Origin: an uncultured delta proteobacterium
GTDB taxonomy: Bacteria > Desulfobacterota > RBG-13-43-22
Reading direction: 5' to 3'
NCBI GenBank assembly: GCA_963802945.1
Contig: CAWDKY010000053.1
Location: forward strand, 160,001 to 224,000
Length of the DNA stretch: 64,000 nt
Shown here: piece after piece, positions 47,524 to 63,680 of the stretch
How positions within the stretch are numbered: position 1 is the first letter of the stretch
Layout: the number at the start of each line of letters is the position of its first letter
Translations under genes and position numbers: made by a program
Notes under the pieces: generated by a model
The model's input: the letters and a program-made list of their open reading frames with translations, nothing else
Database searches by the model: none
What the model was told of the DNA's origin: nothing

Positions 47524-47554
47524 TAAGGTCCTTCTTTCAATGATGATATCTCAC

Positions 47555-47584: not shown

Positions 47585-47835
47585 GTAGTTTGAATGGGCT
47601 AAAAATTTTTTAAAAAAGACTACGGATTCGAATAAAATCAGAAGATTGTTAAAATGATTTTAAACTCCTCTGCTAAAAAGCCATTATGATTGAACCGGAT
47701 CTATATCTTGCTTCGGATTGATCAAATAAGAAAAGTTTTACCCAATTCCCCCACCCTTTCTTCCCCTTCTAAAAAGCTGTCTTGTTGATTAAACATACTC
47801 TTATCAAAAAAATACCTTTTAAGAATAAAAAATAC

Positions 47836-47864
47836 TTGACAATGTCTTGCCCCTCGTTTATTAA
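47836..47864 (+). promoter_or_regulatory. Candidate sigma70 promoter for the rfaH-like/marR/wzm operon
   Basis: TTGACA-17 nt-TATTAA (imperfect -10). Confidence 0.4.
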
Positions 47865-47865
47865 G

Positions 47866-47886
47866 TATGTTCAGAGCATGAACATA
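47866..47886. promoter_or_regulatory. Putative operator, perfect 8-5-8 palindrome
   Basis: TATGTTCA GAGCA TGAACATA directly downstream of the candidate -10. Confidence 0.6.
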
Positions 47887-47913
47887 TAAAATACATAGGG
47901 TTTTCTTACTATC

Positions 47914-48447
47914 ATGAACCACTGGTATTGTATTTACACCAAACCCAACAAAGAGGAGTTTGTCTGCTGGCTGCTCAGAAAGTTTAATGATATCGAACTG
48001 TTCAATCCAAAATTGAAGAGAAAAAGATTGGTTCGTGGGCGGGTTTCGGAGATTGTGGAAGAACTTTTTCCCTGTTACGTTTTTTCCCGCTTTAATCCCT
48101 TAACCTATTACCATCTCATAAAATATACCAAAGGGGTAAAACGGATCGTCGGTGACAGTAGTGGAAATCCTTACGCCGTTGATCCGACAGTTATAAATGA
48201 AATTAAGGCCCAAAGCGAGAACGGATATTTTCGGGTTCAACCGATCGAATTCCAAAAAGGGGACCCGGTTATGATCAAAGGGGGCCCCTTTCAGGGATTG
48301 GAAGGTATTTTCTTAAGTAAGTGTAAGGCCAGTGAGAGGGTCTCCATTTTGCTGAATCTGATTAAATCTACAGCCCGAGTTAAAATAGAAAAATGTTTTT
48401 TGGCAAAGGGGGAGGAGTCGAATGAAAGGGTTAAGGTTTTAAGCTAA
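47914..48447 (+). CDS. RfaH-like NusG-paralogue transcription antiterminator
   Basis: WYCIYTK, EELFPCYVF, YTKGV, KOW GDPVMIKGGPFQGLEGIF, ERVSILLNLI. Confidence 0.88.
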   Translation: MNHWYCIYTKPNKEEFVCWLLRKFNDIELFNPKLKRKRLVRGRVSEIVEELFPCYVFSRFNPLTYYHLIKYTKGVKRIVGDSSGNPYAVDPTVINEIKAQSENGYFRVQPIEFQKGDPVMIKGGPFQGLEGIFLSKCKASERVSILLNLIKSTARVKIEKCFLAKGEESNERVKVLS

Positions 48448-48510
48448 CGGTTTAAAGTTATTTCGTTTTATTACTGAGAGCATAAAAAAGATTACATCAT
48501 AGAAACATAT

Positions 48511-48630
48511 TTTCACTGCCCACGAGTCTCGATAAAAGCGAAACTCCTTCGAGAAGCGAAGAACTCAGAGATAAACATTTTCTTCTCTACGCCCTCAGGG
48601 TCTCGGCAGTGAAAGAAATTTATAATCTGC
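48511..48630. repeat. Inverted-repeat element related to 50333-50550
   Basis: TTTCACTGCC / GGCAGTGAAA perfect IR; shared tail TCTCGGC(A/G)GT.AAA.AAA.TTATAATCTG. Confidence 0.65.
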
Positions 48631-48678
48631 CCCGCTTAATAAATAAACTACTTTTAATCCTCCTTTTAGGCAGGGAAT

Positions 48679-48690
48679 GGCGGTAGCCTG
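48679..48690 (+). promoter_or_regulatory. ops (operon polarity suppressor) element
   Basis: GGCGGTAGCCTG matches GGCGGTAGnnTG on the non-template strand, downstream of the RfaH-like gene and 29 nt before the marR start. Confidence 0.8.
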
Positions 48691-48719
48691 CCATTAAATC
48701 CCTCCCTCAGCTAATATTT

Positions 48720-49058
48720 ATGGATGAAAACCACCTAAAGACCTTGAAAATTCTCGAAGAAAACCCGGCCTTGTCCCAACGGCATCTGGCCCGAGAATTA
48801 AACCTTAGCCTGGGCAAGGCCAATTACATTATCAACGCCTTGATTCAAAAAGGATATTTAAAAGCCAAACGATTTAAAAATTCCAATAACAAACGGGCTT
48901 ATGTCTATTATCTGACACCGGAAGGGATTAAGAAGAAATTTGAATTGACTTATCAATTTTTTAGGACAAAATCACTGGAATTTGAACAGTTGAGGCAGGA
49001 AATTCGAGCCTTGGAACAGGACATTAAGGCTTCTAATTTCCCTCCGGAGTCGCCATAA
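48720..49058 (+). CDS. EPS-associated MarR family transcriptional regulator
   Basis: SQRHLARELNLSLGKANY, F.NSNNK..Y.YYLTPEGI.KK. Confidence 0.9.
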   Translation: MDENHLKTLKILEENPALSQRHLARELNLSLGKANYIINALIQKGYLKAKRFKNSNNKRAYVYYLTPEGIKKKFELTYQFFRTKSLEFEQLRQEIRALEQDIKASNFPPESP

Positions 49059-49130
49059 AACAACCCTTTGGTTGGCTAGGCGCTTAATAATTCTTCAATC
49101 TTCTCAGAAAGGCTCGAGGAGGAAGACAAA

Positions 49131-49247
49131 ATGCAATCCGGATGGAACCCTAAAGTAACCTTTGACGAATTGTCCTGTCTCATAGTCCGGGCCGATCTGG
49201 AAAAAGCAAAAAAAAGAAGCTCTGGAGATAGCCAAGCCGATGGATAA
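49131..49247 (+). other. 38-codon ORF resembling an extended-SDR (Gmd-like) C-terminal fragment, or the frameshifted true start of wzm
   Basis: SD GAGGAGG; MQSGWNPKVTFDELSCLIVRADLEKAKK; A8 run at 49208-49215, loss of one A puts it in frame with 49240. Confidence 0.45.
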
Positions 49248-50319
49248 ACCAAGGATTAAACAAAACACGACCGTATGGATAGTATCTTTTTTGGCTGTAT
49301 TGGGGTTATGGAACACCCTTCGATGGCAATCCATTTTGAATCTGCCCTTTGAGAATAGTCCGCTGTGGGGCGGCCTTATAATGTCAGCCGGAGCAGCCCT
49401 TATGGTTCTGGGAATTTTTTATTACGGGAATTGGCTAATGGAAGATACGCGACGGCTCTATCAAATTTCAAATCAACGTTTGAATATTCCTTCCATCAAG
49501 TGGATTCGCTTTCTTAATCCGTTAGGACCTTTCTATAACCTCTACCAGCACCGGGACCTATTGCGCCAATTCGTGCGACGGGATATTGAAGGACGTTATA
49601 AAGGGTCTTACCTCGGCCTGATCTGGTCGTTTATCAATCCTCTGTTAATGTTAATGATCTATTCCTTTATTTTTTCAATCGTCTTCAAAGCACGCTGGCG
49701 GCCCCAGGGTGAAGTCAACCTGGGGGAGTTCGCCGTCACCCTTTTTGCCGGCCTGATTGCCTACAATATCTTTTCCGAAACGGTCAATCGGGCTTCCGGG
49801 CTGATCATCGGCAATCCTAACTATGTCAAGAAGGTCATCTTCCCTTTAGAGATCCTTCCCGTCAGCGCTTTGGGATCGACTATTTTCCACGGCCTCGTCA
49901 GCATAGCCATTCTGATAGCCGGCAAACTGCTGATTATGGGAACGCTTTCCCCGACGATACTATTATTGCCTTTGGTCATTCTCCCCTTGCTTTGGTTGAC
50001 TCTGGGGTTGTCCTGGGTCTTGGCCTCTTTAGGAGTATTTCTGAGGGATACGTCTTACGCCGTCGGTATTATTACTCAAGTTCTATTCTTTATGTCTCCC
50101 ATATTCTATCCGATTGAAGCCATACCTAAAAAATATCGGTTTATCCTGCAGATCAACCCCCTTTCGGGCATATTGGAAAATTTCAGGGGCGTACTCATCT
50201 GGAATCGCCTGCCGGACCTGGGAGGATGGCTCATCCAGGTATTCATATCACTGGTCATTTTTGTCATCGGATACATGTGGTTCATGAAAACCAAGCCTGG
50301 CTTTGCCGACGTCGTTTAA
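49240..50319 (+). CDS. wzm: ABC transporter permease Wzm with N-terminal hydrophobic extension
   Basis: RRDIEGRYKGSYLGLIWSFINPL, NYVKKVIFP, FLRD, SPIFYP, FADVV. Confidence 0.9.
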   Translation: MDKPRIKQNTTVWIVSFLAVLGLWNTLRWQSILNLPFENSPLWGGLIMSAGAALMVLGIFYYGNWLMEDTRRLYQISNQRLNIPSIKWIRFLNPLGPFYNLYQHRDLLRQFVRRDIEGRYKGSYLGLIWSFINPLLMLMIYSFIFSIVFKARWRPQGEVNLGEFAVTLFAGLIAYNIFSETVNRASGLIIGNPNYVKKVIFPLEILPVSALGSTIFHGLVSIAILIAGKLLIMGTLSPTILLLPLVILPLLWLTLGLSWVLASLGVFLRDTSYAVGIITQVLFFMSPIFYPIEAIPKKYRFILQINPLSGILENFRGVLIWNRLPDLGGWLIQVFISLVIFVIGYMWFMKTKPGFADVV

Positions 50320-50332
50320 TTGGAAAGAAATG

Positions 50333-50550
50333 TTTTTACCGCAAAGGCCCAAAGAGCGCAGAGAGAATCATTTTTGTTCAATCCCGCCTCTTAAGGGATT
50401 GAACAAAACAGCTCTGGCCTCCGGCCATAAAAATACCCGGAGGGTAGCGAGGCTTATCGATTGCCGGTGAAAGGCCGGCAATCGATAAATTTTCTTCTTG
50501 GCGGCCTCTGCATCTCTGCGTCTCGGCGGTTAAAATAAATTATAATCTGT
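50333..50550. repeat. Nonamer-type arms enclosing three hairpins, between wzm and wzt
   Basis: ACCGCAAAG GCCCAAAGA GCGCAGAGA ... CTCTGCAT CTCTGCGT CTCGGCGGT; perfect 14-bp stems at 50372-50408 and 50454-50488. Confidence 0.8.
50454..50499 (+). terminator. Candidate intrinsic terminator inside the glycan operon
   Basis: TTATCGATTGCCGG-TGAAAGG-CCGGCAATCGATAA followed by ATTTTCTTCTT. Confidence 0.45.
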
Positions 50551-50571: not shown

Positions 50572-51954
50572 ATGTTAAATCAATCTGTAAATAATGACGC
50601 CATGATTTCCGTGCGGAATATCGGCAAGATGTATCGATTATTCGATCAGCCCAAGGATCGCTTGAAGGAGCAATTATTATGGAGGTTTGGCAAGAGATAT
50701 AGTCGGGAGTTCTGGGCGCTCAAAGATATTTCTTTTGAAGTTAAAAAAGGCGAAACCGTCGGCCTCATCGGCCGAAATGGTTCAGGAAAATCCACGCTGC
50801 TACAAGTGATCTGCGGTACGCTGACGCCTACCCATGGAACCATCGAAACAAGAGGCCGCATTGCTGCTTTGTTGGAGCTTGGTTCTGGGTTCAATCCGGA
50901 GTTTACCGGACGTGAGAATGTCTACATGAACGCCGCGGTACTGGGCTTGAGCAAAAAAGAAATCGATGCACGCTTTGACGACATTGCCACATTTGCTGAT
51001 ATTGGTGATTTCATCGAGCAGCCCGTCAAAACTTATTCCAGCGGCATGGTGGTGCGGCTTGCGTTTAGCGTAGCGATCAATGTCGATCCAGAAATTTTGG
51101 TTGTTGATGAAGCCCTTTCGGTAGGTGACGAACTATTCCAGCGCAAGTGTTTTTCCCGCATCGAGGCCATCAAGAGTAGCGGGGCAACGATTCTGTTTGT
51201 ATCCCACTCTGGCGCCACCATCATTGAACTATGTGATCGTGCGGTATTGATAGATGCGGGTGAAAAACTGGCGGTTGGCGTCCCCAAACAAATCGTGGGG
51301 AGCTACCAAAAACTACTTTATGCACCCAAGGATAAACGCGAAGCTATTCGGAATCAAATTCGCCGAGCGGATGAACATATTGCAGCTTCTGCCAATACCG
51401 TTCAAGATACATCACCAGAATTATACGCCCCCAGTGAAGCTACACCAGAGCTGCAAGAAAGTTTCGACCCAAATCTTAAGCCTATCAGCACTATTGAGTA
51501 TGCGTCTCAAGGGGCTAAAATAATATCCGTCTTAATAAAAACGCTTGAGGGCGTGCAAGTTAATAACTTGGTGCGTGGAAAAACTTATCTCTACTGCTAC
51601 ACGGTGAAGTTCCTGAAAAATTGCACCAATGTCCGTTTTGGGATGTATATCAAGACTATTTCCGGGTTTGATTTAGGAGGCGCGGCCTCATCAAGTTTGA
51701 AAAACAGTATTGCCTTTATAGAAAGCGGATCAACGTATCAAGTCGAGTTCCAATTCCGTTGTATTTTAAATAGTGGTGTTTATTTTGTGAACGCAGGGGT
51801 TAATGGCAATATTGATGGTACTGAGACATTTCTAACGCGACTGCTAGATGCCATCGCGTTTCGAGTGATAGATGAAGTTGATATTTATTCGTCAGGCATT
51901 GTGGACTTTGGGTGCCTTCCCACGATTCAACTAGCTCTAGATCAGAGCGAGTAG
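50572..51954 (+). CDS. wzt: ABC transporter ATPase Wzt with C-terminal carbohydrate-binding domain
   Basis: GRNGSGKSTLL, ELGSGFNPEFTGREN, YSSGM, VDEALSVGD, VSH; about 200-aa C-terminal extension. Confidence 0.93.
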   Translation: MLNQSVNNDAMISVRNIGKMYRLFDQPKDRLKEQLLWRFGKRYSREFWALKDISFEVKKGETVGLIGRNGSGKSTLLQVICGTLTPTHGTIETRGRIAALLELGSGFNPEFTGRENVYMNAAVLGLSKKEIDARFDDIATFADIGDFIEQPVKTYSSGMVVRLAFSVAINVDPEILVVDEALSVGDELFQRKCFSRIEAIKSSGATILFVSHSGATIIELCDRAVLIDAGEKLAVGVPKQIVGSYQKLLYAPKDKREAIRNQIRRADEHIAASANTVQDTSPELYAPSEATPELQESFDPNLKPISTIEYASQGAKIISVLIKTLEGVQVNNLVRGKTYLYCYTVKFLKNCTNVRFGMYIKTISGFDLGGAASSSLKNSIAFIESGSTYQVEFQFRCILNSGVYFVNAGVNGNIDGTETFLTRLLDAIAFRVIDEVDIYSSGIVDFGCLPTIQLALDQSE

Positions 51955-51964: not shown

Positions 51965-52690
51965 ATGATTATTTCGCACGATAAAAGGTTTGTCATGTTT
52001 CGCGCCTGGAAGGCTGCCAGCTCAACTTTAGCTTTAAGACTTCGAATTTACAATCAAAGTCCATATTCGCATTTTTTTTACTTTAACAAATTCCTAAACA
52101 GGGTGACCCATGGGCATATTACCTGCGCCGAATTCACTCATCTCCCAGAAAGCAACCTTGGTTATTTTACTGCCTCGTTCGTTAGAAACCCATATGATCG
52201 AGTCTATTCCGGATTTCGGCAGTTAATAAAAGACATTAACGAACAACCTTTTTTGGATTATCCGGAGTTGTGGATACGAGACAGGGTAAAGAAGCAATTG
52301 GCGGAAAATTTTGAGCAATTAGTCCAAGCATCTTTTGAATTTAACAGGTGGTTTGATTTGATAAGAGAAGAGCAAGTTTATCATGTTGGCGTTAACACGA
52401 ATTTCCCGCTGCACCCCTCTCATTACTGGACGCATAATGCGGGAAGGCAATTCGTCGACTTTATTGGAAAGGTTGAGAACTTTGAAGAGCATTTTAATCG
52501 GTTCTTACGCTTAATGAATATTGATAACCTGGAAGTCGTCAATGCCAACGTAGTTGAATTAGAATCAAAGGATAAACAGGAACCGTTTGGCTATCGTTAC
52601 ACAAACCGGATGTCAAAAAAAACTATAGAAAAAATCAATCGAATATTTTGCCTTGATTTCGAATTGTTTAACTACGAACCAATCAAATAG
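51965..52690 (+). CDS. Sulfotransferase family 2 protein
   Basis: MIISH..FV....KAASST (5'-PSB), FVRNPYDRVYS (3'-PB), DFIGKVENFE, DFELFNY. Confidence 0.8.
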   Translation: MIISHDKRFVMFRAWKAASSTLALRLRIYNQSPYSHFFYFNKFLNRVTHGHITCAEFTHLPESNLGYFTASFVRNPYDRVYSGFRQLIKDINEQPFLDYPELWIRDRVKKQLAENFEQLVQASFEFNRWFDLIREEQVYHVGVNTNFPLHPSHYWTHNAGRQFVDFIGKVENFEEHFNRFLRLMNIDNLEVVNANVVELESKDKQEPFGYRYTNRMSKKTIEKINRIFCLDFELFNYEPIK

Positions 52691-52886
52691 CTCAATAACT
52701 CGAATAGCCTCGGGACGTGGGCCTTTATTTTTTGAGGCGTTCGATCTGAGTAGAAACAACATGATCTTCTATGTAACGGCTGGCCATAGAAAATTTCATA
52801 CAGACAACCAATGACATTGCGATCGGTCGTATCAAAGAAGTATTTTTGATTTCATCAAAGCCCAAGGGATATTTAGGGACAATGGA

Positions 52887-53828
52887 ATGAAATTTACCGG
52901 AGAACGCTATCACAACACTCCGAACTCTGCGCAGATCAGTTACGAGCATTGGCACCGGTATCTTTATGCAACGCAATTCATCAAAGGAAAGGTCGTTTTA
53001 GACATTGCATCCGGGGAAGGGTATGGAACGAGCTTGATGGCCCAAACGGCCAAGACGGTTGTGGGCATTGATATTTCTCAAGAGGCTGTTGATTTCGCAG
53101 CAGAGCACTATCCCCGAAACAACATTTCCTTCCTGCAGGGATCGGTGGAAAATATCCCCATTGATGGTGCAAATAAATTTGATGTTATAGTTTCTTTTGA
53201 AACCATCGAGCATGTGGATGCCAGGGCACAGGAAATCTTCCTGAATGAAGTAAAACGTCTTTTGAAGGATGATGGGGTCTTCATCGTTTCTTCTCCCAAT
53301 AAACTGTTTTTTTCTGATATTCCAAAATACAAAACTGATTTCCACATCAAAGAATTTTACGAGAAAGAATTCAGGAACTTTTTAGAAACATATTTCGATC
53401 ATATTGTCCTGTTGGGACAGAAGGTTTTTACCGGCTCCAACATGTGGCAACTTAACGATTCAAAATCCGCAGGTTCATTTGCTGAATATCAGATCACAAA
53501 CGATGGACAGCGTATTGTCGTAACGGATGAAAAGAAAGAATCGCGTTATATGTTTGCTGTTTGCTCTGATGTAAAAATTAAAGTAGCAGAAAATTCATTT
53601 TTGGTTGATGTTTCCCTAAGCCTTTTATCTGAACGTGACAGGCAGATTGCCGTCCTCAATCAGACATTGGCACAACGTGACACAATGATTGTCAACCTGG
53701 AGCAAACGATAACTGAACGCGACGCTCAGATCATCCAAATCACCTCGAGCCATTCATGGAAGATGACGCTTCCGTTGCAGGAAGTCGTGCGGTGGGTTGC
53801 AAACCTGATGTCACATGCCAAACGTTAA
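52887..53828 (+). CDS. Class I SAM methyltransferase with short coiled coil
   Basis: FTGERY, EHWHRY, VLDIASGEGYG, SFETIEH, SSPNK; ERDRQIA..QRD..ERDAQI..SHSWKMTLPL. Confidence 0.87.
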   Translation: MKFTGERYHNTPNSAQISYEHWHRYLYATQFIKGKVVLDIASGEGYGTSLMAQTAKTVVGIDISQEAVDFAAEHYPRNNISFLQGSVENIPIDGANKFDVIVSFETIEHVDARAQEIFLNEVKRLLKDDGVFIVSSPNKLFFSDIPKYKTDFHIKEFYEKEFRNFLETYFDHIVLLGQKVFTGSNMWQLNDSKSAGSFAEYQITNDGQRIVVTDEKKESRYMFAVCSDVKIKVAENSFLVDVSLSLLSERDRQIAVLNQTLAQRDTMIVNLEQTITERDAQIIQITSSHSWKMTLPLQEVVRWVANLMSHAKR

Positions 53829-53961
53829 TGGGGATAGGCGGCAAAGCTTGCCGAGTCGGTTGATGTGCTCCTCTTCCCGCGCCAATAAAAACATGCAGGC
53901 TTTTCGAGACTTGGTCAACTCCCACTAAATTTATTATCAAGGAAAGTTAATAAAAATCAAA

Positions 53962-56900
53962 ATGAACAAAAACAACGTGACCATAATAATACCGGTCTAT
54001 AAAGACTTCCCGGCCTTAAAGAGCTGTATTCAATCTCTTAAAAAATTTGTTGGTTCGAGACACAAAATTTTGATTGTTAATGATTGTAGTCCGGAAATAA
54101 ACATGGAGAACGACATTGTAAATGAAATTGATCAAGATAGTAGATTTAATTACTATAAAAATAATGAAAATTTAGGATTTGTGAGAACCTGTAATAAAGC
54201 GGTAATAGAATTGGATAAAACCAAAAACGACATCCTTGTTCTAAATTCAGATACTGAAGTAACGGATAATTTTTTGGAAGAGATGATCGACATATTATAT
54301 AACTGCGAAAAGCACGGCATCGTATGTCCGCGAAGCAACAATGCCACGATATTATCTATCCCCCTCAATTATAATGAAGATCGAAGAAAAATCATCAATG
54401 AAAGTTATGCGTGTTATTTAAAAATTAAATATTTGCTTCCGAGATTCAATATTATCCCCACTGCTGTTGGCTTTTGCATGTTAACCAAGAGGGAATTAAT
54501 AAATAGATATGGTTTTTTTGATGAAATATATTCCCCCGGATATAACGAAGAAAATGATTTTTCTATGAGGATAAACAGATACGGATATTCATCGATCATG
54601 GCGAATCACTCATTTGTATTTCATCACGAAACAAAGAGCTTTACCTTACATGGGAAAAAAGAACTAAATGATAAAAATCAAAAAATATTATTGGAAAGGT
54701 ATCCTTATTATCTCAATCTTGTAAGTAATTATTTGAATTATCAGATCAATCCTGTTGACCATTTTTCAGACGTTATCGACAATTCTTTTTCTGAGAAAAC
54801 CAGGATACTTTTTAGTCTATATAATCTTCCTGTTATGCACAATGGAACATCCGAATATGGATTAAATTTGCTCAGTAATTTTATTGAGAAATATAAGGAT
54901 AAATACGACATAGATATATTAACTACGCCCGCCGGGGCTGAATTCCACAAATTATCAGAAAAATATAATAACATATTTTATCCGGACACCATCACAAAAC
55001 ATTATCATATCACCATCTGTCCCTCACAAATCTTTGATATAAGACACTTATTGGTATTAAATAAGTATTCATTAAGAATTCTTGTCACCATGCAAGACAT
55101 CATATCTCTAAGATGTCGATATCTCTATATTGAAAACCCCAGTGTTGAAAATCTAGTTGCCTTGACCCTTAGGTTTTCTGACGGGATAATCTCCTTAACA
55201 AACTACTCAAAAAAAGATCTGATGACATATTTCGAACCGCTCCCGGCGAATAACAAAAAACCCAATATAAGAGTGATACCGCAAGGAATATCGAATGATT
55301 TTCAAGAGTTTGAAAAATTTAAGCATGAAATACCTTTTGAGGAATACGTATTAATTGTTGGCAATGATTATCATGATCATAAATCAGTAAAAGATTGCAT
55401 CAATCACCTCCAAAATATGGAAATCAATTTCTGTGTTTTGGGGTGTGGCGATATGGGAAAAAAAAATGTCAAATGCTATTCGAGCGGTTTTCTTGATGGC
55501 GCATTCATTGAGGCCTTATATCATTTTGCTGCTTTAGTGATTTTTCCAAGCACCTATGAAGGTTTTGGAATACCTCTTATTAAAAGCGTCTTACACTCCA
55601 AGAAAATTGTCGTGCTCGACAATGAAATAAATAAAGAAATATCCAATGATTATGGAAAAGAAAACTTCTTGTTCTTCAAAACATATGATCAAATTAGAGA
55701 CCACATCCTAAATTGTAAAAAAACACCATTCAGAAATAACAATCAAGCAAGAACATGGGAAGATGTGGCTGATGATACCGAGGAATTTGTTGAAGAAATA
55801 TTAAGCATAGGAATAGATTCCAAAGAACTGGCAAAAAGATGGTATTCATTATTATCTATCGAACAACAAATAAAAGAGGGAGACCTAAAAATAGAACAAC
55901 AAATAAGGGAGAGGGCCCTGTTAATTATAGCAGCATTATTTTACCCACATTCCCTTCAATCTCCGAGTGGATGGGTGGGACACTTACCGTTTGCGGCTTG
56001 GGTGATCCAAGATATTTCACCAAAAGTATTTGTTGAGCTTGGCACGCATATCGGGAATTCCTATTTTTCGTTCTGCCAATCCGTTTTCGAAGCCGGCCTT
56101 TCAACAAAATGTTATGCCATCGATACCTGGCAAGGGGATGAACATGCCGAGAAATATGACGAAGAGATTTTCGCCAAAGTTAACGCATATAATCAGGAAC
56201 ACTATGCCGGATTCTCCAGGCTGTTGCGGATGACTTTTGATGATGCCGTTACACATTTTGCGGATGGATCCATAGAGTTATTGCACATTGACGGTTTGCA
56301 TACATATGAAGCAGTGTGCCATGATTTTGATACTTGGCTGCCCAAATTGGCACCCGGAGCCGTGGTTATATTGCACGATACCCAAGTTCGCAAAAATAAC
56401 TTTGGGGTGTGGAAACTCTGGGAAGAACTGCAAGAGCGTTACCCGAACAATTTAGAGTTTGTCCATTCGTACGGGCTCGGAGTGTTGCAACTAAACAACA
56501 CGCCGGCTGATAAGAGACTCACCTGGTTTCGACCCAATTCCTCCGAAAAGCTTCGATTGATAAATTACTTTGCCGCTCTGGGCTTCCGGCAATTGGAACA
56601 TTTTGAATTAAACGAACAAAAGCAGCTAATAGCTGAACGCGACGGGCAAATCGCCAACCTTTATCACTCTACCAGTTGGCGAATTACACGGCCTCTTCGC
56701 ATTATTGGGCGCCAGTTAAAAAGATACCGACGTGTTGCTGAATTTGCCCTCCCTGCTATTCAGCGTGGCGGTGGTTTGAAAAGCACACTTAAGAAAGTAA
56801 TACGACTATACCGTCGTGAGGGTTTGGTTGGTATCAAGCGCGATTTTAGATGGGTTGCTGCCTCGCAACTACCTGATAATTTAAAAGATATCAACTCTGC

Positions 56901-59226
56901 CTACCGGAGGGCGGTGAGCCAGCCGGCTGAGGAATTATTAGCTCCGCGGGTTTTGATCATCGCCGAGATGAGCATTCCCCAGTGCAAGAAATATCGCGTC
57001 CAGCAGAAACAAGATTTGTTTAAATTCCTGGGTATCAATTGCACCATGCTCAATTGGGCTGACGCTCAAGCGTGTCTTAATGCGTTGCAAACACACTCTC
57101 TGGTCATCTTCTACCGGGTGCCCGCATATAATAGTGTGCTTTCGATTATTAATGAAGCGAAGCGACTACGCCTCCCAACGATTTGGGAGGTGGATGATTT
57201 AATTTTCGACAAAAAAGTGTTGATCAAGAGCAAAACACTATTAGCTTTGAACAAAGAAATCGTTGACCAGCTCGTTGAAGGTGCCGGTCTGTATCGCAGG
57301 GCCATGCTGCTTTGCGACCAGGGAATTGCTTCCACCACAGGTCTTGCCGATGCCATGAAGAAGGCTGGTTTGTCCGAAGTGCATGTCATCGAAAATGCGT
57401 TGGACCGACAGACCTTGGAGGTTGCAGAAAAGGTCTGTCGTGACCATACCTTTCACCGAAATGGCATTGTTCGTATTTTCTATGGCTCAGGAACAAACAC
57501 GCATAATGTCGATTTTCAAGAAGCTGCGCCCGCCATTATCAAGATATTGGATAAATTTCCCAATGTGCGGCTTCGCCTCATGGGATTATTGAATTTACCC
57601 GAAATTTTTTCTCAGTATGAGGAGCAGGTGGAGCGTTTGCCAACCTGTTCTTACGAAGAATATATGACTGCCCTGGCTGAGTGTGATATCAGTATTACAC
57701 CTCTCGAGAACTATGTTTTCAATGATTCCAAGAGCAACATAAAATATCTGGAAGCCTCCATTGTTAAGGTGCCTTCTGTTTGTTCGCCGCGGGCTGCTTT
57801 TGCTCAGGTCATGATCCATGGCCAGAACGGCTTGTTGTGTGAAACAGATGATGAATGGGAGGCCGCTCTTACGTTGCTTGTGACAGACAACGCGAAGCGA
57901 AACGAGGTCGGTGAGGCCGCATACACAACGATAAGGCAACGCTATTTGCCGGAAAGCATCGCTCGGCAACAGGTTGCGCCCCTGCTTGCTTGCCACGACA
58001 GAAACCCCGACACCCTGCGGGTGCTTTCGGTAAACTGCTTTTACTATCCTCGTTCCTACGGGGGAGCAACCATTGTTGCAGAAGAGGTCAATAAACAAAT
58101 CAATAATAAGGATGGTTTTCAGGTTCATGTCTTCACGGCCTTGCCATCTTCTGTGGCGCCCTCTTATACAACCAGACGTTATGAGGTTGACGGCATCAAC
58201 GTCTATGGCGTAGGGCTGCCTGACCGATTGGATGAAAAGACACAATTCGAGAACCCTGAGATCGTCGACGCCTTTGGCAACGTTCTTGCCGTGGTACAGC
58301 CCGATATCGTGCATTTTCACTGTATTCAAGGTATCGGAGTATCGGTGGTCGATCTTTGCGTCCGAAAGAGCATCAAATATGTTATTACACTTCACGATGC
58401 CTGGTGGCTGTGCGGTCGACAATTCATGATCAACAGGAAAGGCAAATACTGCGAGCAGAAAAAAATCGATCTTGCCGTATGTGCAACATGTGTCGACAAT
58501 CATCACTTGAATTTATACCGGAGTGAGCGCCTGATCGCTGCATTGCGTCACGCCTCGGCATTGCTGACGCCAAGCCGCTTTTTTGCAGACTTTTACATTG
58601 CCAACGGATTTACTAATGTACAGGTTAATAAAAATGGCGTACTGAAGCCTGGCAGTACGTCACGGTTTCGTAGGAAAGGTCCTCTTAGGTTTGGCTATGT
58701 CGGCGGCAACACTAAAGTTAAAGGCTTTCACCTGGTCAAGAAAGTCTTCTCCGGTCTTGCCGGCTCTAACGTCAGGCTTATGCTGGTCGATAACATGTTG
58801 AGTCTCGGTTTCACCTCCTACCATCAGCAGGATTTAGCGGGCATTCCTAAAGCAAAGATTGTGCCTGCCTACACTCAGAGCAATATTGACGACTTCTTTG
58901 CCAAAATTGATGTTTTGTTGTTTCCCACGCAATGGAAAGAAAGTTTCGGTCTGACAGTCCGCGAGGCATTGGCAAGAAATGTTTGGGTTATCGCAACGGA
59001 TGCTGGAGGGGTTATCGAAGATATCAAGCCTGGTCAAAACGGCTATATCGTACCCTTCGGGGATACGGGAGAAGGCTTGAAACAGGCTGTCATCGACACG
59101 CTGCGGCATTTTGAACAAATCACTCCTGGTGAAGAAATCTTGCTCGGTACGACGGATATCACCTTCTTCGAGGATCAAGCCGCCGAACTTGAGGCTATAC
59201 TGAAGCAAGTCCATGCCGGCAACTAA
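53962..59226 (+). CDS. 1754-aa multidomain protein: GT2, GT4-like, methyltransferase (Methyltransf_24), short coil, two further GT-B domains
   Basis: IIIPVY/NDCS/LNSD/EENDF; FPSTYEGFGIP; VELGTH..DTWQGD..LHIDGLHTYE; EVDDLIFD/KSNIKYLEA; YGGAT/TLHDAWW/ESFGLTVREA. Confidence 0.85.
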   Translation: MNKNNVTIIIPVYKDFPALKSCIQSLKKFVGSRHKILIVNDCSPEINMENDIVNEIDQDSRFNYYKNNENLGFVRTCNKAVIELDKTKNDILVLNSDTEVTDNFLEEMIDILYNCEKHGIVCPRSNNATILSIPLNYNEDRRKIINESYACYLKIKYLLPRFNIIPTAVGFCMLTKRELINRYGFFDEIYSPGYNEENDFSMRINRYGYSSIMANHSFVFHHETKSFTLHGKKELNDKNQKILLERYPYYLNLVSNYLNYQINPVDHFSDVIDNSFSEKTRILFSLYNLPVMHNGTSEYGLNLLSNFIEKYKDKYDIDILTTPAGAEFHKLSEKYNNIFYPDTITKHYHITICPSQIFDIRHLLVLNKYSLRILVTMQDIISLRCRYLYIENPSVENLVALTLRFSDGIISLTNYSKKDLMTYFEPLPANNKKPNIRVIPQGISNDFQEFEKFKHEIPFEEYVLIVGNDYHDHKSVKDCINHLQNMEINFCVLGCGDMGKKNVKCYSSGFLDGAFIEALYHFAALVIFPSTYEGFGIPLIKSVLHSKKIVVLDNEINKEISNDYGKENFLFFKTYDQIRDHILNCKKTPFRNNNQARTWEDVADDTEEFVEEILSIGIDSKELAKRWYSLLSIEQQIKEGDLKIEQQIRERALLIIAALFYPHSLQSPSGWVGHLPFAAWVIQDISPKVFVELGTHIGNSYFSFCQSVFEAGLSTKCYAIDTWQGDEHAEKYDEEIFAKVNAYNQEHYAGFSRLLRMTFDDAVTHFADGSIELLHIDGLHTYEAVCHDFDTWLPKLAPGAVVILHDTQVRKNNFGVWKLWEELQERYPNNLEFVHSYGLGVLQLNNTPADKRLTWFRPNSSEKLRLINYFAALGFRQLEHFELNEQKQLIAERDGQIANLYHSTSWRITRPLRIIGRQLKRYRRVAEFALPAIQRGGGLKSTLKKVIRLYRREGLVGIKRDFRWVAASQLPDNLKDINSAYRRAVSQPAEELLAPRVLIIAEMSIPQCKKYRVQQKQDLFKFLGINCTMLNWADAQACLNALQTHSLVIFYRVPAYNSVLSIINEAKRLRLPTIWEVDDLIFDKKVLIKSKTLLALNKEIVDQLVEGAGLYRRAMLLCDQGIASTTGLADAMKKAGLSEVHVIENALDRQTLEVAEKVCRDHTFHRNGIVRIFYGSGTNTHNVDFQEAAPAIIKILDKFPNVRLRLMGLLNLPEIFSQYEEQVERLPTCSYEEYMTALAECDISITPLENYVFNDSKSNIKYLEASIVKVPSVCSPRAAFAQVMIHGQNGLLCETDDEWEAALTLLVTDNAKRNEVGEAAYTTIRQRYLPESIARQQVAPLLACHDRNPDTLRVLSVNCFYYPRSYGGATIVAEEVNKQINNKDGFQVHVFTALPSSVAPSYTTRRYEVDGINVYGVGLPDRLDEKTQFENPEIVDAFGNVLAVVQPDIVHFHCIQGIGVSVVDLCVRKSIKYVITLHDAWWLCGRQFMINRKGKYCEQKKIDLAVCATCVDNHHLNLYRSERLIAALRHASALLTPSRFFADFYIANGFTNVQVNKNGVLKPGSTSRFRRKGPLRFGYVGGNTKVKGFHLVKKVFSGLAGSNVRLMLVDNMLSLGFTSYHQQDLAGIPKAKIVPAYTQSNIDDFFAKIDVLLFPTQWKESFGLTVREALARNVWVIATDAGGVIEDIKPGQNGYIVPFGDTGEGLKQAVIDTLRHFEQITPGEEILLGTTDITFFEDQAAELEAILKQVHAGN

Positions 59227-59240
59227 GCAATGAGGTTATT

Positions 59241-60749
59241 TTGGATCTAAAGAAACAGGCCTTCGAGAGCACATCGAGCAACATAAGTCCGTGGATGATC
59301 TTATTGATCCTTGTTGTCGGCTCATTTTTTTCAGTACTCATACCACCCTTCCAGTCTCCGGATGAGCCTGCCCATGTCATGCGAGCTTACTTATTAAGCA
59401 AGGGTTCGATTATTTTGGATGCGCCAGCCGGTAATAATTCAGGCGGCATGATTGACTCGGGCCTTGTTGCTTATTCTGAAGTTTATGAAGTTCTTAAATT
59501 TAAGCCAGATAGAAAGTTATTGGCTGACGAAATAGATTCGGCAAAATTCATTAAGTGGACAGGTATTAAAGAATTTAAAGCAGTACCCCTTGCATTTTAT
59601 TTCCCACTAAGTTACCTACCACAGGCCCTAGGCCTTACGGTAGGAGAAATATTAGGGCTAACGATCAATTCCTCTTACCTGCTGGCCAGGTTCCTGGTTC
59701 TTGTGTCCATTGCCTTGATTTTGTTTGCAGCATTTCAAGTATACCCGGTAAATCCGCTAACCATTGCGCTGTTAATCATACCGATGAGTGTATTTCAATC
59801 CTCATCTGCAAGTCTGGATGGCGTTTCAACAGCCTTGGCCATTTTTTCCATTGCAACATTTTTGCGGCTTGCTGTTGAGAAAGATAACGCCAGCCCTTGG
59901 CTTTTTTATTTGCATACCTTGTCGGTAGTTTTGGTGGCAACGTGCAGACCTCATTTACTACCATTGTTGGCCCTGGTTTTGGTGGTTGGCTTTTATCTCC
60001 CCAAAAAGAAATATTTATATATTTCCGCCTTTGCTTTGTTGTTTGTTCTGACATGGTTTATCATCGCAAATAAAACAACAGTCGACTTCGTTGATAAAGT
60101 TGGCATTTCAAAAGCGAGTTGCGCGTTGTTTTACATTAAAAATCCCATAGCATTCTTTGATGTCCTCATGGCCACATTGGATAGAGATCATCTTAGATTT
60201 CTAATAAAATCTTTTTTGGGCATACTCGGATGGATTGATACTCGATTCAGTACAGAAGCATATAAGTTTCTTTTTATAGTCACTATCTTGATTGGTCTGT
60301 TCTCAGTTTCTGTAAAAAATTTAAAGACTGGATGGATTCCGCGGCTCGTTCTGCTTTTCAGCGCGTTTTCTTCTGTTTTTCTTATTTTCTTTTCATCCCT
60401 AATTACTTGGAATCCACATCCTGCTAGAATTATCGATGGTGTCCAGGGCCGATATTTTTTGGTTCCAACGATTATGGTTGCTTACGCCATTTCAGGCGGA
60501 TCAAATATATCCGATGGTATCTGTCGAAAAATTGCCCTCTTACTGGTTATACTCTTAGGGGCATTCACCATTTTTAGCATGCCACGGGTACTGATTGAAA
60601 GATATTATCTTGGGCTTGAACAGCCCAAACAGATTTCCTTAGTAATCCGCGCGAGTGCGTTTCTGGAAAAAAATAATCCAGTTACCCTATTTATGAGCAA
60701 GGATCACGAAAGAAATCTGCAACCACTGAAGCGCAATGGCATACATTAA
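59241..60749 (+). CDS. DUF2142 family polytopic membrane protein (GT-C-like)
   Basis: PPFQSPDEPAH, YLPQALG, G.LGWIDT, GVQGRYF; many TM segments. Confidence 0.78.
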   Translation: MDLKKQAFESTSSNISPWMILLILVVGSFFSVLIPPFQSPDEPAHVMRAYLLSKGSIILDAPAGNNSGGMIDSGLVAYSEVYEVLKFKPDRKLLADEIDSAKFIKWTGIKEFKAVPLAFYFPLSYLPQALGLTVGEILGLTINSSYLLARFLVLVSIALILFAAFQVYPVNPLTIALLIIPMSVFQSSSASLDGVSTALAIFSIATFLRLAVEKDNASPWLFYLHTLSVVLVATCRPHLLPLLALVLVVGFYLPKKKYLYISAFALLFVLTWFIIANKTTVDFVDKVGISKASCALFYIKNPIAFFDVLMATLDRDHLRFLIKSFLGILGWIDTRFSTEAYKFLFIVTILIGLFSVSVKNLKTGWIPRLVLLFSAFSSVFLIFFSSLITWNPHPARIIDGVQGRYFLVPTIMVAYAISGGSNISDGICRKIALLLVILLGAFTIFSMPRVLIERYYLGLEQPKQISLVIRASAFLEKNNPVTLFMSKDHERNLQPLKRNGIH

Positions 60750-60779
60750 GGTAACATCTGAATCTTTAAAACTAATCCT

Positions 60780-62597
60780 TTGAAAGGAATTTTTAATAAC
60801 GATATGATTACCGAACAACATCCGATAATTTTCAACACACCCAGAAGATTACTTGAAGGAGATGAAGCATCTACTTGGATAACGCATGTTCCATTCGGTT
60901 TTTTTCTGATCAGTATTTTAAAGCCGAAGTTAGTCGTGGAGTTGGGTGTTTTTAGAGGCCAATCCTATGCCGTATTTTGCCAGGCCGCAAAAACATTGAA
61001 ACTTAACATCCGATGCTATGGGGTTGACACCTGGAAAGGCGACATCCATAATGGCGAATATGGTGAAGATGTTTATGAGGAATTTAGCCATTACAACCAG
61101 AAAGAATATGGCGAGTTTTCCCAACTTCTACGAATGACCTTCAATGAGGCCTTAACTCATTTTGAAGATGGAAGCATTGATCTTTTGCATATTGATGGTC
61201 TTCATACCTACGAGGGAGTCAAAAATGATTTTGAATCATGGCTGCCCAAAATGTCGCCATGCGGCGTTGTGGTTTTTCATGACACATTTATTAAAGATCT
61301 TGATTTTGGTGTTTGGAAATTGTGGGAGGAGATCTCACAAAAGTATCCCAGTTTTGAATTCGTGCAATGGTGTGGTCTTGGCGTAGCGGCCGTAGGCAAA
61401 GAAGTTAACAAGGACTTTATAGAATTTTTACAAGAAGCTAAAGTCAATGGATTTGTCAGTAAGCTTTTCTATTCTCTCGGAGAGCTGGTTCTTTCCGAAG
61501 CAAGAATAAACAAGTTGATTGGTGATTATAATAAATTGATCGATGATTTCAGCGACTATAAGGCAATGATCGCTAATTCCGTCGAGTGGAAGTATGGTGT
61601 GATAGTGCGTAAATTGCTTGTTTCTATCGCACCTAATAATACGTGGAGAAGAAAGGCATTGGACTATTCTGCGAAAATAAGTGTTGCTGTTTTAAAAAGA
61701 CTTACTGGCTCTTGGCAAATCAATAATAAAACGGATATCGACGTTGCCGAAGTTAAGCGAGTGTATGACGAAGACACGCTCAGGTCATTGGAAACCATGC
61801 CGCTGCCGCTTTCGAAAAATGGAAAAAGGAAATGCGCTATTTTTGTCATGGTTAAAAATGAGGATGTTTTTTTGCCGATCTGGCTGAAATATTACAGCCG
61901 GTATTTTGATGGGAAGGACATTTATGTTTTCGACCATCGGAGTATCGACGGCAGTGTGCAACAATGTTTGAAAGACTACACATTCAATGTCATCCGGCTG
62001 GATTATACCTCCAGTTTTGATCATCTTTGGTTTAAATTTGTCGCCGATAACGTGCAAAAAAAACTTTTTCAACATTACGAATACGTTATATTTACCGACA
62101 TAGATGAAATCATTCTGCCTGGTATTAATAAATACAGAGGCTTAAATGAGTATATTCAAAAACTGGACAAAAGTCACGTACGATGCATTGGTTATGAAAT
62201 AATACATGTGCCGGAAAAGGAAAAACCATATGATTCATCAGAATCTGTTTTATCTCAACGAAGATTCTGGTACTATTCCACTTGGTATAATAAAACGCTT
62301 ATATCCAACCAGCCATTGAATTGGATAATTGGATTCCATGAGGTTCGCAATCTGGAATCCAATTTTGATAATGATTTGATTCTGATCCATCTTCACAAGC
62401 TCGACTTTGATCTTTGTTGGAAAAAAAGCTTCGAGCGAGCGCGTCTCAAGTGGCCACTCGCAGATTTATTCAACAACTGGGGATGGCAGAACCGGTTTGT
62501 CGATATTGATAAATTCAGAGATTATTATGAGAGGTGGCCTGACGGCCTTAAAGTTGAGGAAATTCCTGAGGAATTACGGAAAAGTAATCTTTTTTAA
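60780..62597 (+). CDS. Methyltransferase (Methyltransf_24) fused to a GT-A glycosyltransferase-like domain
   Basis: VELGVFRGQS, DTWKGD, LHIDGLHTYE; MVKNEDVFLPIWLKYY, DHRSIDGS, TDIDE. Confidence 0.82.
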   Translation: MKGIFNNDMITEQHPIIFNTPRRLLEGDEASTWITHVPFGFFLISILKPKLVVELGVFRGQSYAVFCQAAKTLKLNIRCYGVDTWKGDIHNGEYGEDVYEEFSHYNQKEYGEFSQLLRMTFNEALTHFEDGSIDLLHIDGLHTYEGVKNDFESWLPKMSPCGVVVFHDTFIKDLDFGVWKLWEEISQKYPSFEFVQWCGLGVAAVGKEVNKDFIEFLQEAKVNGFVSKLFYSLGELVLSEARINKLIGDYNKLIDDFSDYKAMIANSVEWKYGVIVRKLLVSIAPNNTWRRKALDYSAKISVAVLKRLTGSWQINNKTDIDVAEVKRVYDEDTLRSLETMPLPLSKNGKRKCAIFVMVKNEDVFLPIWLKYYSRYFDGKDIYVFDHRSIDGSVQQCLKDYTFNVIRLDYTSSFDHLWFKFVADNVQKKLFQHYEYVIFTDIDEIILPGINKYRGLNEYIQKLDKSHVRCIGYEIIHVPEKEKPYDSSESVLSQRRFWYYSTWYNKTLISNQPLNWIIGFHEVRNLESNFDNDLILIHLHKLDFDLCWKKSFERARLKWPLADLFNNWGWQNRFVDIDKFRDYYERWPDGLKVEEIPEELRKSNLF

Positions 62598-62633
62598 TGA
62601 GGCGATTATAACAACCTGAAGCAACAACGGGGT

Positions 62634-63680
62634 ATGGCCATGAGCAGCGGGAAAAAAATATCGATAGCCCTGGCAACCTATAACGGCGAGCAATATCTTC
62701 GGGAGCTTCTCGAATCCCTATACCGGCAAACCTGTCGCCCCTATGAAGTGATGGTCTGTGATGACGGATCGACCGACAGCACTGTCGGCATTTTGGAAGA
62801 ATATGCCCGCACCCATGGATTGCACTATCAGGTTAATCCCCGGATCCTTGGCTACATTAAAAATTTCGAGAAAACCATTTCACTCTGCAGTGGTGATTAT
62901 ATCGCCCTCTGCGACCAGGATGACCGCTGGCGACCTGATAAGCTTCGGATTCTCGCTGATGGTATCGGCAGTTATTCATTGATCTGCTCAAATGCCGCTG
63001 TTATTGACGATTTCGGCAATAAAATTGCACGTTCATACTTCAAATATTCACGCATACATGTCCCGAGCCGGAGAAAGCAAACCCATTCACTAACATTCCA
63101 CAATTATGTTATGGGATGCACGTCTCTATTTCACAAAAGTATTTTATCTTCGGCAACGTATCCTTTTCCGGATGGCGTTCCCCATGACTGGTGGATCGCA
63201 ATCATAGCGTCTATGAAAAACGGTATTCGATACATCAATAAACCGCTAATCGAATATCGTCTGCATGGGGAAAATGCCAGCAGCATTGTAAGAAAAAGGC
63301 TATTTGATGACATACGCAACTATTGGAAGAAATTTAATGCTAAACAAAATCATTTAGATACTGTAATGACAATAAATTTTACACTTCTTTTGCTAAATGA
63401 ACTTGAAGGGCGCGGTTTAATTGATGCCTGGATGATCTCATTAAAGCATGATTTGAAAGCATTGCTTGACGATTTCAATATCTCTCCATTTGAACACCCG
63501 AAAGCCAATTTGCTCATCTGGAAGTATCTGAATTATTTTTGCCCCTCGCCCAATCCCCTTGTGAAAATCATGTTTATGATCGAAAATATTTATGACAAAA
63601 TCAGATCTTATGAAAGAGAGGAATTTTTTAATTCAATAAAGCGGAGGGAAAATGAAAATAATATCAATAAAAAACCTTAA
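62634..63680 (+). CDS. GT2 glycosyltransferase
   Basis: ALATYNGEQYL, DDGSTD, LCDQDD.W, GCT, HDWW, YRLHGEN. Confidence 0.9.
   Translation: MAMSSGKKISIALATYNGEQYLRELLESLYRQTCRPYEVMVCDDGSTDSTVGILEEYARTHGLHYQVNPRILGYIKNFEKTISLCSGDYIALCDQDDRWRPDKLRILADGIGSYSLICSNAAVIDDFGNKIARSYFKYSRIHVPSRRKQTHSLTFHNYVMGCTSLFHKSILSSATYPFPDGVPHDWWIAIIASMKNGIRYINKPLIEYRLHGENASSIVRKRLFDDIRNYWKKFNAKQNHLDTVMTINFTLLLLNELEGRGLIDAWMISLKHDLKALLDDFNISPFEHPKANLLIWKYLNYFCPSPNPLVKIMFMIENIYDKIRSYEREEFFNSIKRRENENNINKKP

Follow-up and report, generated by a model that had tools for sequence, protein, structure and literature searches.

The recruitment of RfaH, a specialised NusG paralogue, is described as worked out only for Escherichia coli (Wang 2020, PMC7593976), in which the ops-contacting side chains are given as K10, H20, R23 and R73 (Zuber 2018, PMC5995543). 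According to the latter account, a C3:G8 pair closes a hairpin formed by the non-template DNA of the E. coli ops element, and G4, G5, A7 and G8 are needed for RfaH recruitment, not for pausing (PMC5995543); T6 is described as the base flipped into the RfaH pocket. Among related systems, a leader RNA hairpin is said to be required by LoaP (as cited in PMC11685472), opsX pause hairpins of Bacteroides are placed at −12 to −16 (PMC11685472), and for PrfaH an ops-like site is reported to lie downstream of the gene's own promoter (PMC11880322). The current model, as set out in PMC7593976 and PMC13015549, holds that operon-adjacent ancestors of RfaH were ops-independent and that the reading of ops was acquired together with autoinhibition and trans action. 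Here we describe a 64,000-nt stretch of contig CAWDKY010000053.1 from an uncultured delta proteobacterium (assembly GCA_963802945.1; ‘the window’, whose positions are used throughout unless a contig is named), in which the gene of an RfaH-like NusG paralogue is followed on the same strand by an ops element that agrees with the E. coli consensus at every specified position.

With a probability of roughly 0.8, we read this locus as an ops-dependent, RfaH-type processive antitermination module whose factor gene lies next to its own loading site. By analogy it would be a variant of the known RfaH/ops kind, the function of which we infer. The cassette comprises the following features:

47837..47865, + strand: promoter-like TTGACA-17 nt-TATTAA, 49 nt 5′ of the paralogue start codon, read from the sequence
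47914..48447, + strand: RfaH-like specialised NusG paralogue (NGN + KOW), 177 aa (open reading frame list, PF02357)
48515..48611, + strand: long stem (cactgcc...ggcagtg) around small hairpins in the leader (RNA fold)
48659..48675, + strand: short hairpin CCUCCU-UUU-AGG-c-AGG directly 5′ of ops (fold of 48640-48700)
48676..48678, + strand: AAT spacer between hairpin and ops
48679..48690, + strand: ops element GGCGGTAGCCTG, equal to the E. coli consensus GGCGGTAGnnTG at 10/10 specified positions
48720..49058, + strand: MarR family exopolysaccharide (EPS)-associated regulator, 112 aa, the first gene after ops (TIGR04176, 132.3 bits against a cut-off of 88; HTH_24/MarR)

The GGCGGTAGNNTG pattern has a single match on the two strands of the window, namely GGCGGTAGCCTG at 48679-48690, with 0.06 matches expected from window shuffles (6 of 100 shuffles contained one). 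A preliminary description of this DNA had placed ops 231 nt after the stop codon of the paralogue, which is exact to the base (gap 48448-48678), and had the next gene starting 29 nt beyond ops without a Shine-Dalgarno (SD) sequence; this is indeed the arrangement at 48720, where the preceding bases are ccctccctcagctaatattt, the upstream 25 nt contain no purine run and a purine-rich SD sequence is lacking. Together with the next bases (CC ATT), ops could also form an 8-bp RNA hairpin, AAUGGCGG/CUGCCAUU. The promoter-like stretch at 47837..47865 was not listed by a consensus promoter scan because its second hexamer ends in A; it is unchanged beside the 94%-identical orthologue at locus L076, where the DNA is 97% identical and hence too close to inform, and it may, going by its hexamers, be the promoter of the cassette. 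No sigma-70-type promoter was listed between the paralogue and ops, and a terminator scan of the + strand from 48447 to 48679 found none, so that co-transcription of the paralogue with the genes downstream of ops is possible. Folding of leader RNA from 48500 to 48620 gave −34.7 kcal/mol (z = −3.69), a value matched by 1 of 200 shuffles. A 33-nt leader piece (48600-48632, sharing part of the 48515-48611 stem) is repeated at 97% identity on contig C59 of the assembly (C59:9312-9280), just 5′ of the wzt gene there.

Conservation of the site was assessed in 80 related loci obtained from a one-genome-per-species prokaryote scan, with record titles of Thermodesulfobacteriota (Smithella, Syntrophaceae and others), Nitrospirota (Thermodesulfovibrionia, Nitrospira), Nitrospinota and Aquificota metagenome-assembled genomes. 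Counting on the strand of the gene, up to 400 nt after or 200 nt before it, we found the exact element in 39/80 loci, a copy with one mismatch in 19/80 and neither in 22/80; ops with no more than one mismatch thus adjoins the gene in 58/80 loci. In the same windows, the reversed and antisense patterns each gave no exact match and one match with a single mismatch. Loss of ops downstream of orthologues had been named in advance as the observation that would refute the proposed mechanism, and it was not observed: all four orthologues with downstream DNA (50-54% identical) have the exact 12-mer 60-135 nt after the gene, and in the 58 wider relatives the site likewise stands beside the gene, after or before it. 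A broken orthologue copy with 61% identity has GGCGGTAGCATG at the site, and two more orthologues stop at contig ends. The tentative assignment of the DNA to Desulfobacterota agrees with the 94%-identical orthologue, which comes from a record titled Thermodesulfobacteriota. Within the window's family, 8 genomes with an orthologue contain 27 exact 12-mers (9 for the reversed control) and 13 genomes without one contain 9 (control 9); these genomes are kin, and the counts are descriptive, not independent trials.

Two layouts were distinguished among loci with the exact element. In layout A, seen in the window and 31 relatives, the gene is followed by the hairpin-ops element 58-287 nt after its stop codon (median 115) and then by the operon. 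In layout B, seen in 8 relatives (mainly Smithella/Syntrophaceae, with some Nitrospirota), the hairpin-ops element lies 8-33 nt before the start codon of the factor; the proteins of this layout are the nearest neighbours of the window protein in the tree described below, after its 94% orthologue.

Mismatches in the 19 one-mismatch sites fell at T11 (nine, eight of them to C), T6 (five, all to C), G12 (three), G1 (one) and G4 (one), and none at G2, C3, G5, A7 or G8; the sites were preselected at no more than one mismatch, which makes conservation of the ten specified positions partly a matter of construction. The T11-to-C changes keep the pause pyrimidine Y. Because the mismatches avoid central bases that are dispensable for pausing in E. 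coli, the centre of ops looks protein-read, and not merely pause-inducing. A T6-to-C form, GGCGGCAGCCTG, and a T11-to-C form, GGCGGTAGCCCG, are lineage-specific, with hairpin and spacer kept (loci L090, L095, L141, L144, L147; L091, L100, L129, L131, L146, L150), and among the 80 relatives no protein residue was found to co-vary with either of them.

Alignment of 60 sites revealed a shared frame of hairpin, (G)AAY, GGCGGTAGCCTG and YCC, in which the unspecified positions 9-10 of the E. coli consensus are C in 57/60 and 52/60 sites, respectively, and the spacer is AAT, AAC or GAT in 49 of 57 non-identical sites. The sequence of the hairpin depends on lineage (CCCGG/CCGGG, AGCTGTC/GACAGCT, CAGGTGC/GCACCTG, CATGCC/GGACATG, AAGGG/CCCT and more), with 29 distinct outer stems across the sites, and its position is fixed: among the 51 sites that have a stem, 40 place its 3′ end at −4 relative to ops G1. 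A covariance model was built on 12 sites that share one geometry; it picked up 66 sites, among them that of the window (48662-48695, 26.6 bits, E = 1.8e-4) and a copy on contig C59 (23.5 bits). In the model-fitted alignment of 63 distinct sites, 90.5% of cells pair, as opposed to 46.5% after shuffling (0/500 shuffles reach the observed value) and 27-43% with slid partners, and compensatory changes occur in 6/6 hairpin pairs. An independent test on stem length found stems of at least 7 bp in 18/60 sites, compared with 0/60 in a control region and 46/1200 in shuffles.

RNAalifold, applied to a MAFFT alignment of 56 sites in which stems of unequal length are misaligned, did not find the upstream hairpin and returned only an invariant GGCGG/CYGYC pairing free of compensatory changes; a second MAFFT alignment, trimmed at the stem starts, was out of register. 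An Rfam scan of 47400-49400 and 10 related loci, with E up to 10, gave no match on the element, RF01707 included, and the matches off the element (snoRNA-like, RT-18) were dismissed as chance. On the alignments, ops is part of a larger element composed of a covarying hairpin, an AAY spacer, ops and YCC. If polymerase pauses at U11, as it does in E. coli, and U11 is counted as −1, the 3′ end of the typical hairpin lies at −15 and that of the window, with its four-base GAAT spacer, at −16, both within the range reported for opsX pause hairpins; 48659..48675 is a candidate nascent-RNA pause hairpin.

The protein encoded at 47914..48447 is the only NusG paralogue of its genome besides the housekeeping NusG, which is encoded on contig C14 (106 bits to PF02357) and clusters with E. 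coli NusG in the tree. Its NGN domain matches PF02357 with 50 bits, and its best NCBIfam match is the RfaH model TIGR01955 (96.2 bits against a cut-off of 144.5). Lower scores were obtained with a second RfaH model, NF006534 (79.8, cut-off 124), and with the models for UpxY, NF033644 (79.9, cut-off 100), LoaP, NF033641 (57.1, cut-off 125) and NusG, TIGR00922 (38, cut-off 135.7). A comparison with solved structures likewise placed E. coli RfaH first (E = 5e-12), with NusG next (5e-6), and identity in structure alignments to RfaH is only 26-28%. The earlier assignment to the RfaH type therefore stands as to the best model and the best solved relative and fails at the RfaH cut-offs; because the scores lie under those curated cut-offs, we classify the protein by its profile matches as RfaH-like and not as an RfaH equivalog.

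All four motifs that had been picked out beforehand, K10, EELFP (49-53), TKGV (72-75) and ILLNLI (145-150), are present and align with K10, E48-PLFP, T72-R73-G74-V75 and L142-LLNLI-N147 of E. coli RfaH. With residue roles taken from the account of Wang 2020 (PMC7593976), the window protein keeps the DNA contact K10, the autoinhibition residues E48, I93 and F130, F56 for RNA polymerase affinity, and L145-I146 of the loop that replaces the Rho-binding loop of NusG. Here L145-I146-N147 aligns with L-I-K (SILLNLIK), the NusG Rho-binding loop being lost and Rho binding putatively with it. Q24 of the T6 pocket is N. Across the clade, K10 is kept in 80/80 and F56 in 80/80 proteins, R73 in 76/80, and position 48 is E in 59/80 and S in 21/80; of the four E. 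coli ops contacts, the clade thus keeps K10 and R73, and not H20 or R23.

In a quick maximum-likelihood tree (102 rows, after one of 103 had been left out because of its length), E. coli RfaH forms a long branch within a polytomy that includes the clade (support of 89 in the Shimodaira-Hasegawa-like approximate likelihood ratio test), and it is set apart from NusG proteins (99) as well as from another, second clade of NusG paralogues (97). This second clade is represented in most genomes of the window's genus (L029-L036) at ~31% identity, and no ops was found within 1.5 kb of its genes. The ops-type factor is patchy in the genus, being present in 3/14 genomes, the window's own included, with one copy broken. 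In an AlphaFold2 model built with 112 family sequences, the NGN domain is confident and was superimposed by Foldseek on RfaH at 2.1-2.3 Å; only this domain aligns well.

A second full element was found on contig C59, where a paralogous leader carries the hairpin (with compensatory changes), AAT and the exact 12-mer in front of another glycan cluster:

C59 (locus L011) 776-16316, − strand: second Wzm/Wzt glycan cluster behind a paralogous hairpin-ops leader
49140..49226, + strand: 3′ remnant of a GDP-mannose dehydratase gene (gmd) in the window, a deletion scar, 96% identical to C59:11259-11173

Downstream of the C59 ops come a MarR_EPS pseudogene, interrupted by an in-frame TAA at codon 13 and by frame shifts further on, and then GDP-sugar genes, Wzm, Wzt and glycosyltransferases; 5′ of the leader a PAS-LuxR regulator is encoded, not a NusG paralogue. 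AAT and ops are kept there at 15/15 positions in a 78%-identical background, although the MarR gene has decayed. The hairpin-ops element exists apart from the factor gene, whichever strain owns C59. With no paralogue next to this leader and its MarR gene decayed, trans action is likely as well, and the C59 leader is probably served by the same factor. The earlier picture of a factor encoded upstream of its own loading site holds as to layout and proves too narrow in being confined to cis.

Identity between the window and C59 is uneven: 78% over leader and marR (starting at 48590, inside the 48515..48611 stem), 96% over wzm and flanks (49140-50520 against C59:11259-9883) and 72% over the 5′ part of wzt. 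The gmd remnant represents the last 87 nt of a GDP_Man_Dehyd gene that C59 still has. This pattern points to recent gene conversion or strain mixing. On C59, a GDP-fucose-synthase-like gene is split (123 + 219 aa), and a PDDEXK_3 gene lies between wzm and wzt. A third exact 12-mer in the genome, at C34:60690, was rejected as chance: it has an antisense position between genes for PEP-mutase and TPP-decarboxylase, is accompanied by neither AAY nor the hairpin, and receives 15 bits (E = 0.22) from the covariance model.

In a sister genus, orthologue-bearing genomes have more exact 12-mers far from the gene. One follows a priming transferase gene and one runs across the stop codon of a radical-SAM gene. 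In three genomes (L043, L045 and L046; genus g2, G020, G014 and G017), an exact 12-mer, conserved at the nucleotide level, occupies codons 14-17 (Gly-Gly-Ser-Leu) of a Wzz-like gene that follows a Poly_export (Wza-type) gene, with neither an AAY spacer nor an obvious hairpin.

Large open reading frames after ops in the window are all on the + strand up to its end (15.3 kb) and on to position 228525 of the contig (C53:228525), ~19.8 kb past ops:

49240..50319, + strand: Wzm, ABC-2 permease of an O-antigen/glycan exporter (PF01061, 81 bits)
50454..50488, + strand: intrinsic-terminator-like perfect 15-bp hairpin with a U-rich tail (AUUUUCUUCU), between wzm and wzt
50572..51954, + strand: Wzt, ABC ATPase with a C-terminal glycan-binding domain (PF00005, PF14524)
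51965..64000, + strand: sulfotransferase, methyltransferases, 1754-aa multi-domain glycosyltransferase, DUF2142, more glycosyltransferases and RmlC (Pfam)
beyond the window to C53:228525, + strand: RmlD-like gene, epimerase and two acyltransferase genes (Pfam)

Judged by these domains, the cluster is a Wzm/Wzt glycan (O-antigen/EPS) pathway, and both the glycan character of the downstream genes and their extent of more than 15 kb, as given in the preliminary description, are borne out. The hairpin at 50454-50488 ranks first among the terminator-like sites that were scanned for (centroid −25.4 kcal/mol, z = −3.66), and an identical copy follows wzm on C59. In the gap between wzm and wzt (50320-50572), the stretch 16-201 is related, at 80-92% identity, to sequences on contigs C16 and C33 and more weakly to one on C64, and looks like a small repeated intergenic element. 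In the 1754-aa reading frame (53962-59226), GT2 and Methyltransf_24 are joined to two or three GT4/GT1 modules; such a fused glycan-polymerising enzyme is unusually large and typical of ABC-transporter-dependent O-antigen pathways. Upstream of the cassette and divergent from it, the region 43272-47523 contains an O-antigen-ligase-like Wzy_C gene (+) and WecA-type Glycos_transf_4 (−) and GT2-like (−) genes, and the surroundings as a whole form one large envelope-glycan island.

A loose SD motif precedes ~4/11 genes of the cluster, compared with 57% of long open reading frames genome-wide, a crude estimate that relies on first-ATG starts; among relatives, it precedes 15 of 55 first genes after ops. 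First genes were surveyed at 44 loci having ops (no more than one mismatch) 3′ of the paralogue and an open reading frame of at least 60 aa within 400 nt. An EPS-type regulator or glycan-pathway gene comes first in 38/44. The commonest is a MarR/HTH_24 regulator (11/44), and the others are an RmlA-type nucleotidyltransferase (7/44), Wzm, a DUF3473 polysaccharide deacetylase and a priming sugar transferase (4/44 each), a sugar epimerase/dehydratase and an AsnB-type amidotransferase (3/44 each), and exosortase, Wzi, APS kinase, AAA_22, 23S-IVP and HicB-like genes (1/44 each), with no family for 2/44. In one subclade with record titles of Deltaproteobacteria (L107, L111, L114, L127, L141, L142, L145, L146), the hairpin-ops element stands just before exosortase/PEP-CTERM-type EPS genes (AsnB-like amidotransferase, DUF3473 deacetylase, exosortase EpsH).

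From comparative evidence on sequence anatomy, conservation, covariation and genomic association, the mechanism that we propose infers pausing, factor binding, antitermination, ribosome recruitment, loading in cis and the role of the hairpin. A promoter 5′ of 47914 would give a transcript from which the RfaH-like protein is made, and ~230 nt on, RNA polymerase would transcribe the short hairpin, the AAT spacer and GGCGGTAGCCTG. On the analogy of E. coli, it would pause at U11 of ops (48689), ops G2, Y11 and G12 fitting the consensus pause, with the upstream RNA hairpin most likely prolonging or positioning the pause as the pause hairpins of Bacteroides opsX do. The non-template GCGGTAGC would fold into a small DNA hairpin read by the NGN domain, and the factor, once bound to polymerase, would exclude NusG/Rho and allow read-through of ~20 kb of SD-poor glycan genes, the terminator-like hairpin after wzm included. 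The same factor would probably also serve the C59 hairpin-ops leader in trans. The earlier claim that the mechanism of RfaH operates here is supported by the conservation of ops, the RfaH-best scores and the glycan cluster.

A number of observations weigh against this interpretation. The paralogue scores under the curated cut-off of every NusG-paralogue model, and of the E. coli ops contacts H20 is replaced by L, R23 by K and R73 by K, while the HTT motif (H65-T66-T67) is not kept; positions 20 and 23 are free to vary among the 80 relatives. The C-terminal domain (CTD) of the AlphaFold2 model (pLDDT 46-70) is mixed, with strands at 118-120 and 130-132, a helix at 139-153 and no alpha-hairpin, and a fold switch is not evident from it. 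No ops is in reach in 22/80 relatives, 6 of which have less than 200 nt of downstream DNA and one further of which has a two-mismatch variant with a hairpin. In the window itself the hairpin is weak, having 6 bp, a bulge and a fold z of −1.89, and covariation was counted on a model-fitted alignment of related loci, which favours structure. All genomes compared are metagenome-assembled, and C59 may come from a co-binned strain (contamination 6.7%). Finally, the genome itself is not enriched for the pattern, with 8 matches against 9 for the reversed control, which leaves position and conservation to carry the case: the ~270-nt gap after the only NusG paralogue of the genome has the 12-mer on the right strand.

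The absence of enrichment, together with the 6/100 window shuffles that contain a match, is what could be said for a chance resemblance to the ops consensus in an AT-rich leader. We regard this as negligible, since the site recurs in 58/80 related loci compared with 1/80 for each control, on the right strand and in the right position, with shared flanks (AAY, CC, YCC) and a covarying hairpin; orthologue conservation and hairpin covariation refute it. Somewhat less remote, albeit still very unlikely, is that hairpin and 12-mer form an operator or RNA motif of another regulator, such as MarR_EPS, or a riboswitch-like leader unrelated to the NusG paralogue. In the window, AATGGCGG-TAGC-CTGCCATT is near-palindromic and adjoins the MarR gene, the commonest type of gene to follow the site (11/44 loci), but no MarR gene follows it in the other 33/44, and the palindrome is lost across the clade, where the post-ops consensus is YCC followed by an A-rich stretch and GGCGG/CCTGY pairs only with G-U. 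Moreover, the motif equals RfaH ops at 10/10 specified positions and tracks the RfaH-like gene across phyla, the C59 site is kept while its MarR gene is dead, and no Rfam family matches.

The strongest competitor, which we nonetheless consider improbable, is a constitutively active, monomorphic NusG paralogue acting in cis, for which the 12-mer would be only a strong consensus pause or an RNA element and would not be read sequence-specifically by the factor. An operon-adjacent gene is the arrangement tied to homologues with predicted monomorphic or mixed CTDs in the description of PMC13015549; neither H20 nor R23 is conserved, the CTD in the AlphaFold model is no alpha-hairpin, and ops equals the consensus pause at G2, Y11 and G12. 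Against this, the central G5, A7, G8 and C3 never vary in one-mismatch sites, and central bases are reported to be dispensable for pausing in E. coli (PMC5995543). K10 (80/80) and R73 (76/80) are retained, the autoinhibition residues E48, I93 and F130 are identical in the alignment, and these genomes have further ops sites at a great distance from the gene.

A further idea, tentative and on balance doubtful, sees in the locus an antitermination cassette that loads itself and an evolutionary intermediate that is still extant. The factor would be made from the very transcript that carries its loading site 60-290 nt on, the hairpin-stabilised ops pause would hold polymerase until the new protein loads in cis, and the same protein could serve unlinked hairpin-ops leaders. 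If this were true, ops reading with the exact enterobacterial 12-mer would be old and broadly distributed beyond Proteobacteria, would need neither H20 nor R23, and would predate the relocation of rfaH from its targets, at odds with the stepwise model in which cis ancestors are ops-independent. In any case, a large clade in Nitrospirota, Thermodesulfobacteriota and neighbouring phyla has its factor gene physically coupled to a canonical ops, with a covarying pause-type hairpin and only half of the E. coli contact residues. This makes it natural material for testing which protein features read ops and offers a test of cis-loading; it also bridges the E. coli (ops only) and Bacteroides (hairpin + opsX) systems. 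The hairpin-ops-factor cassette would be compact and portable for driving long glycan operons, and for annotation hairpin-AAY-GGCGGTAGCCTG may mark the start of RfaH-dependent EPS/O-antigen operons in these phyla. A literature search, which did not cover the Wang 2020 data set that might list the clade, found among the papers listed none tying RfaH/ops to these phyla.

Compared with E. coli RfaH/ops, the locus has the same 12-mer at all specified positions, the same NGN + KOW architecture with K10, E48, F56, I93, F130 and L145-I146 identical in the alignment, and the same type of target, long SD-poor polysaccharide operons. It differs in that E. coli rfaH is monocistronic, remote from its targets and acts in trans, whereas the window gene adjoins its ops and target cluster. 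Further differences are the CC-fixed positions 9-10, the conserved upstream hairpin and the AAY spacer on the DNA side, and scores under the model cut-offs and the absence of H20, R23 and the HTT motif on the protein side; the KOW domain of E. coli RfaH switches between alpha-hairpin and beta-barrel, while the window CTD model is mixed and of low confidence.

The likeness to UpxY/opsX of Bacteroides fragilis, as described in PMC11685472, lies in a NusG paralogue encoded in its polysaccharide operon and in a composite site, with a pause hairpin directly 5′ of a non-template GCG..AGC hairpin at a consensus pause; layout B, with ops 8-33 nt before the start codon, resembles class-2 opsX, where the start codon is at +9. 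The opsX consensus is YGCGNAGCR, whereas here loop and stem are those of E. coli GCGGTAGC. B. fragilis is reported to have eight such factors, compared with one or a few in the genomes searched here. UpxY is encoded by the first gene of a capsule operon, as the paralogue heads its cluster in the window; the next gene is upxZ in UpxY operons and MarR_EPS (TIGR04176), with no UpxZ, in the window. In the window and 31 relatives with an exact ops the site follows the factor gene, a gene order that for the most part differs from UpxY/opsX. The JUMPstart element of gamma-Proteobacteria (RF01707) is likewise described as lying in the 5′ leader of polysaccharide clusters and as having ops and a conserved stem-loop (Weinberg 2010, PMC2864571), but there is no Rfam match here and the phyla differ. 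LoaP of Firmicutes and plasmid PrfaH, compared by description only, are also specialised NusG paralogues encoded next to their targets. The cis-located RfaH homologues of Tabilo-Agurto et al. 2026 (PMC13015549) are likewise reported within or beside a long lipopolysaccharide/EPS operon and predicted to have a monomorphic or mixed CTD; the AlphaFold CTD of the window protein, mixed and of low confidence, also lacks an alpha-hairpin. Those homologues are described as lacking some ops-binding residues and as ops-independent, whereas the present clade combines a canonical ops with conserved K10 and R73.

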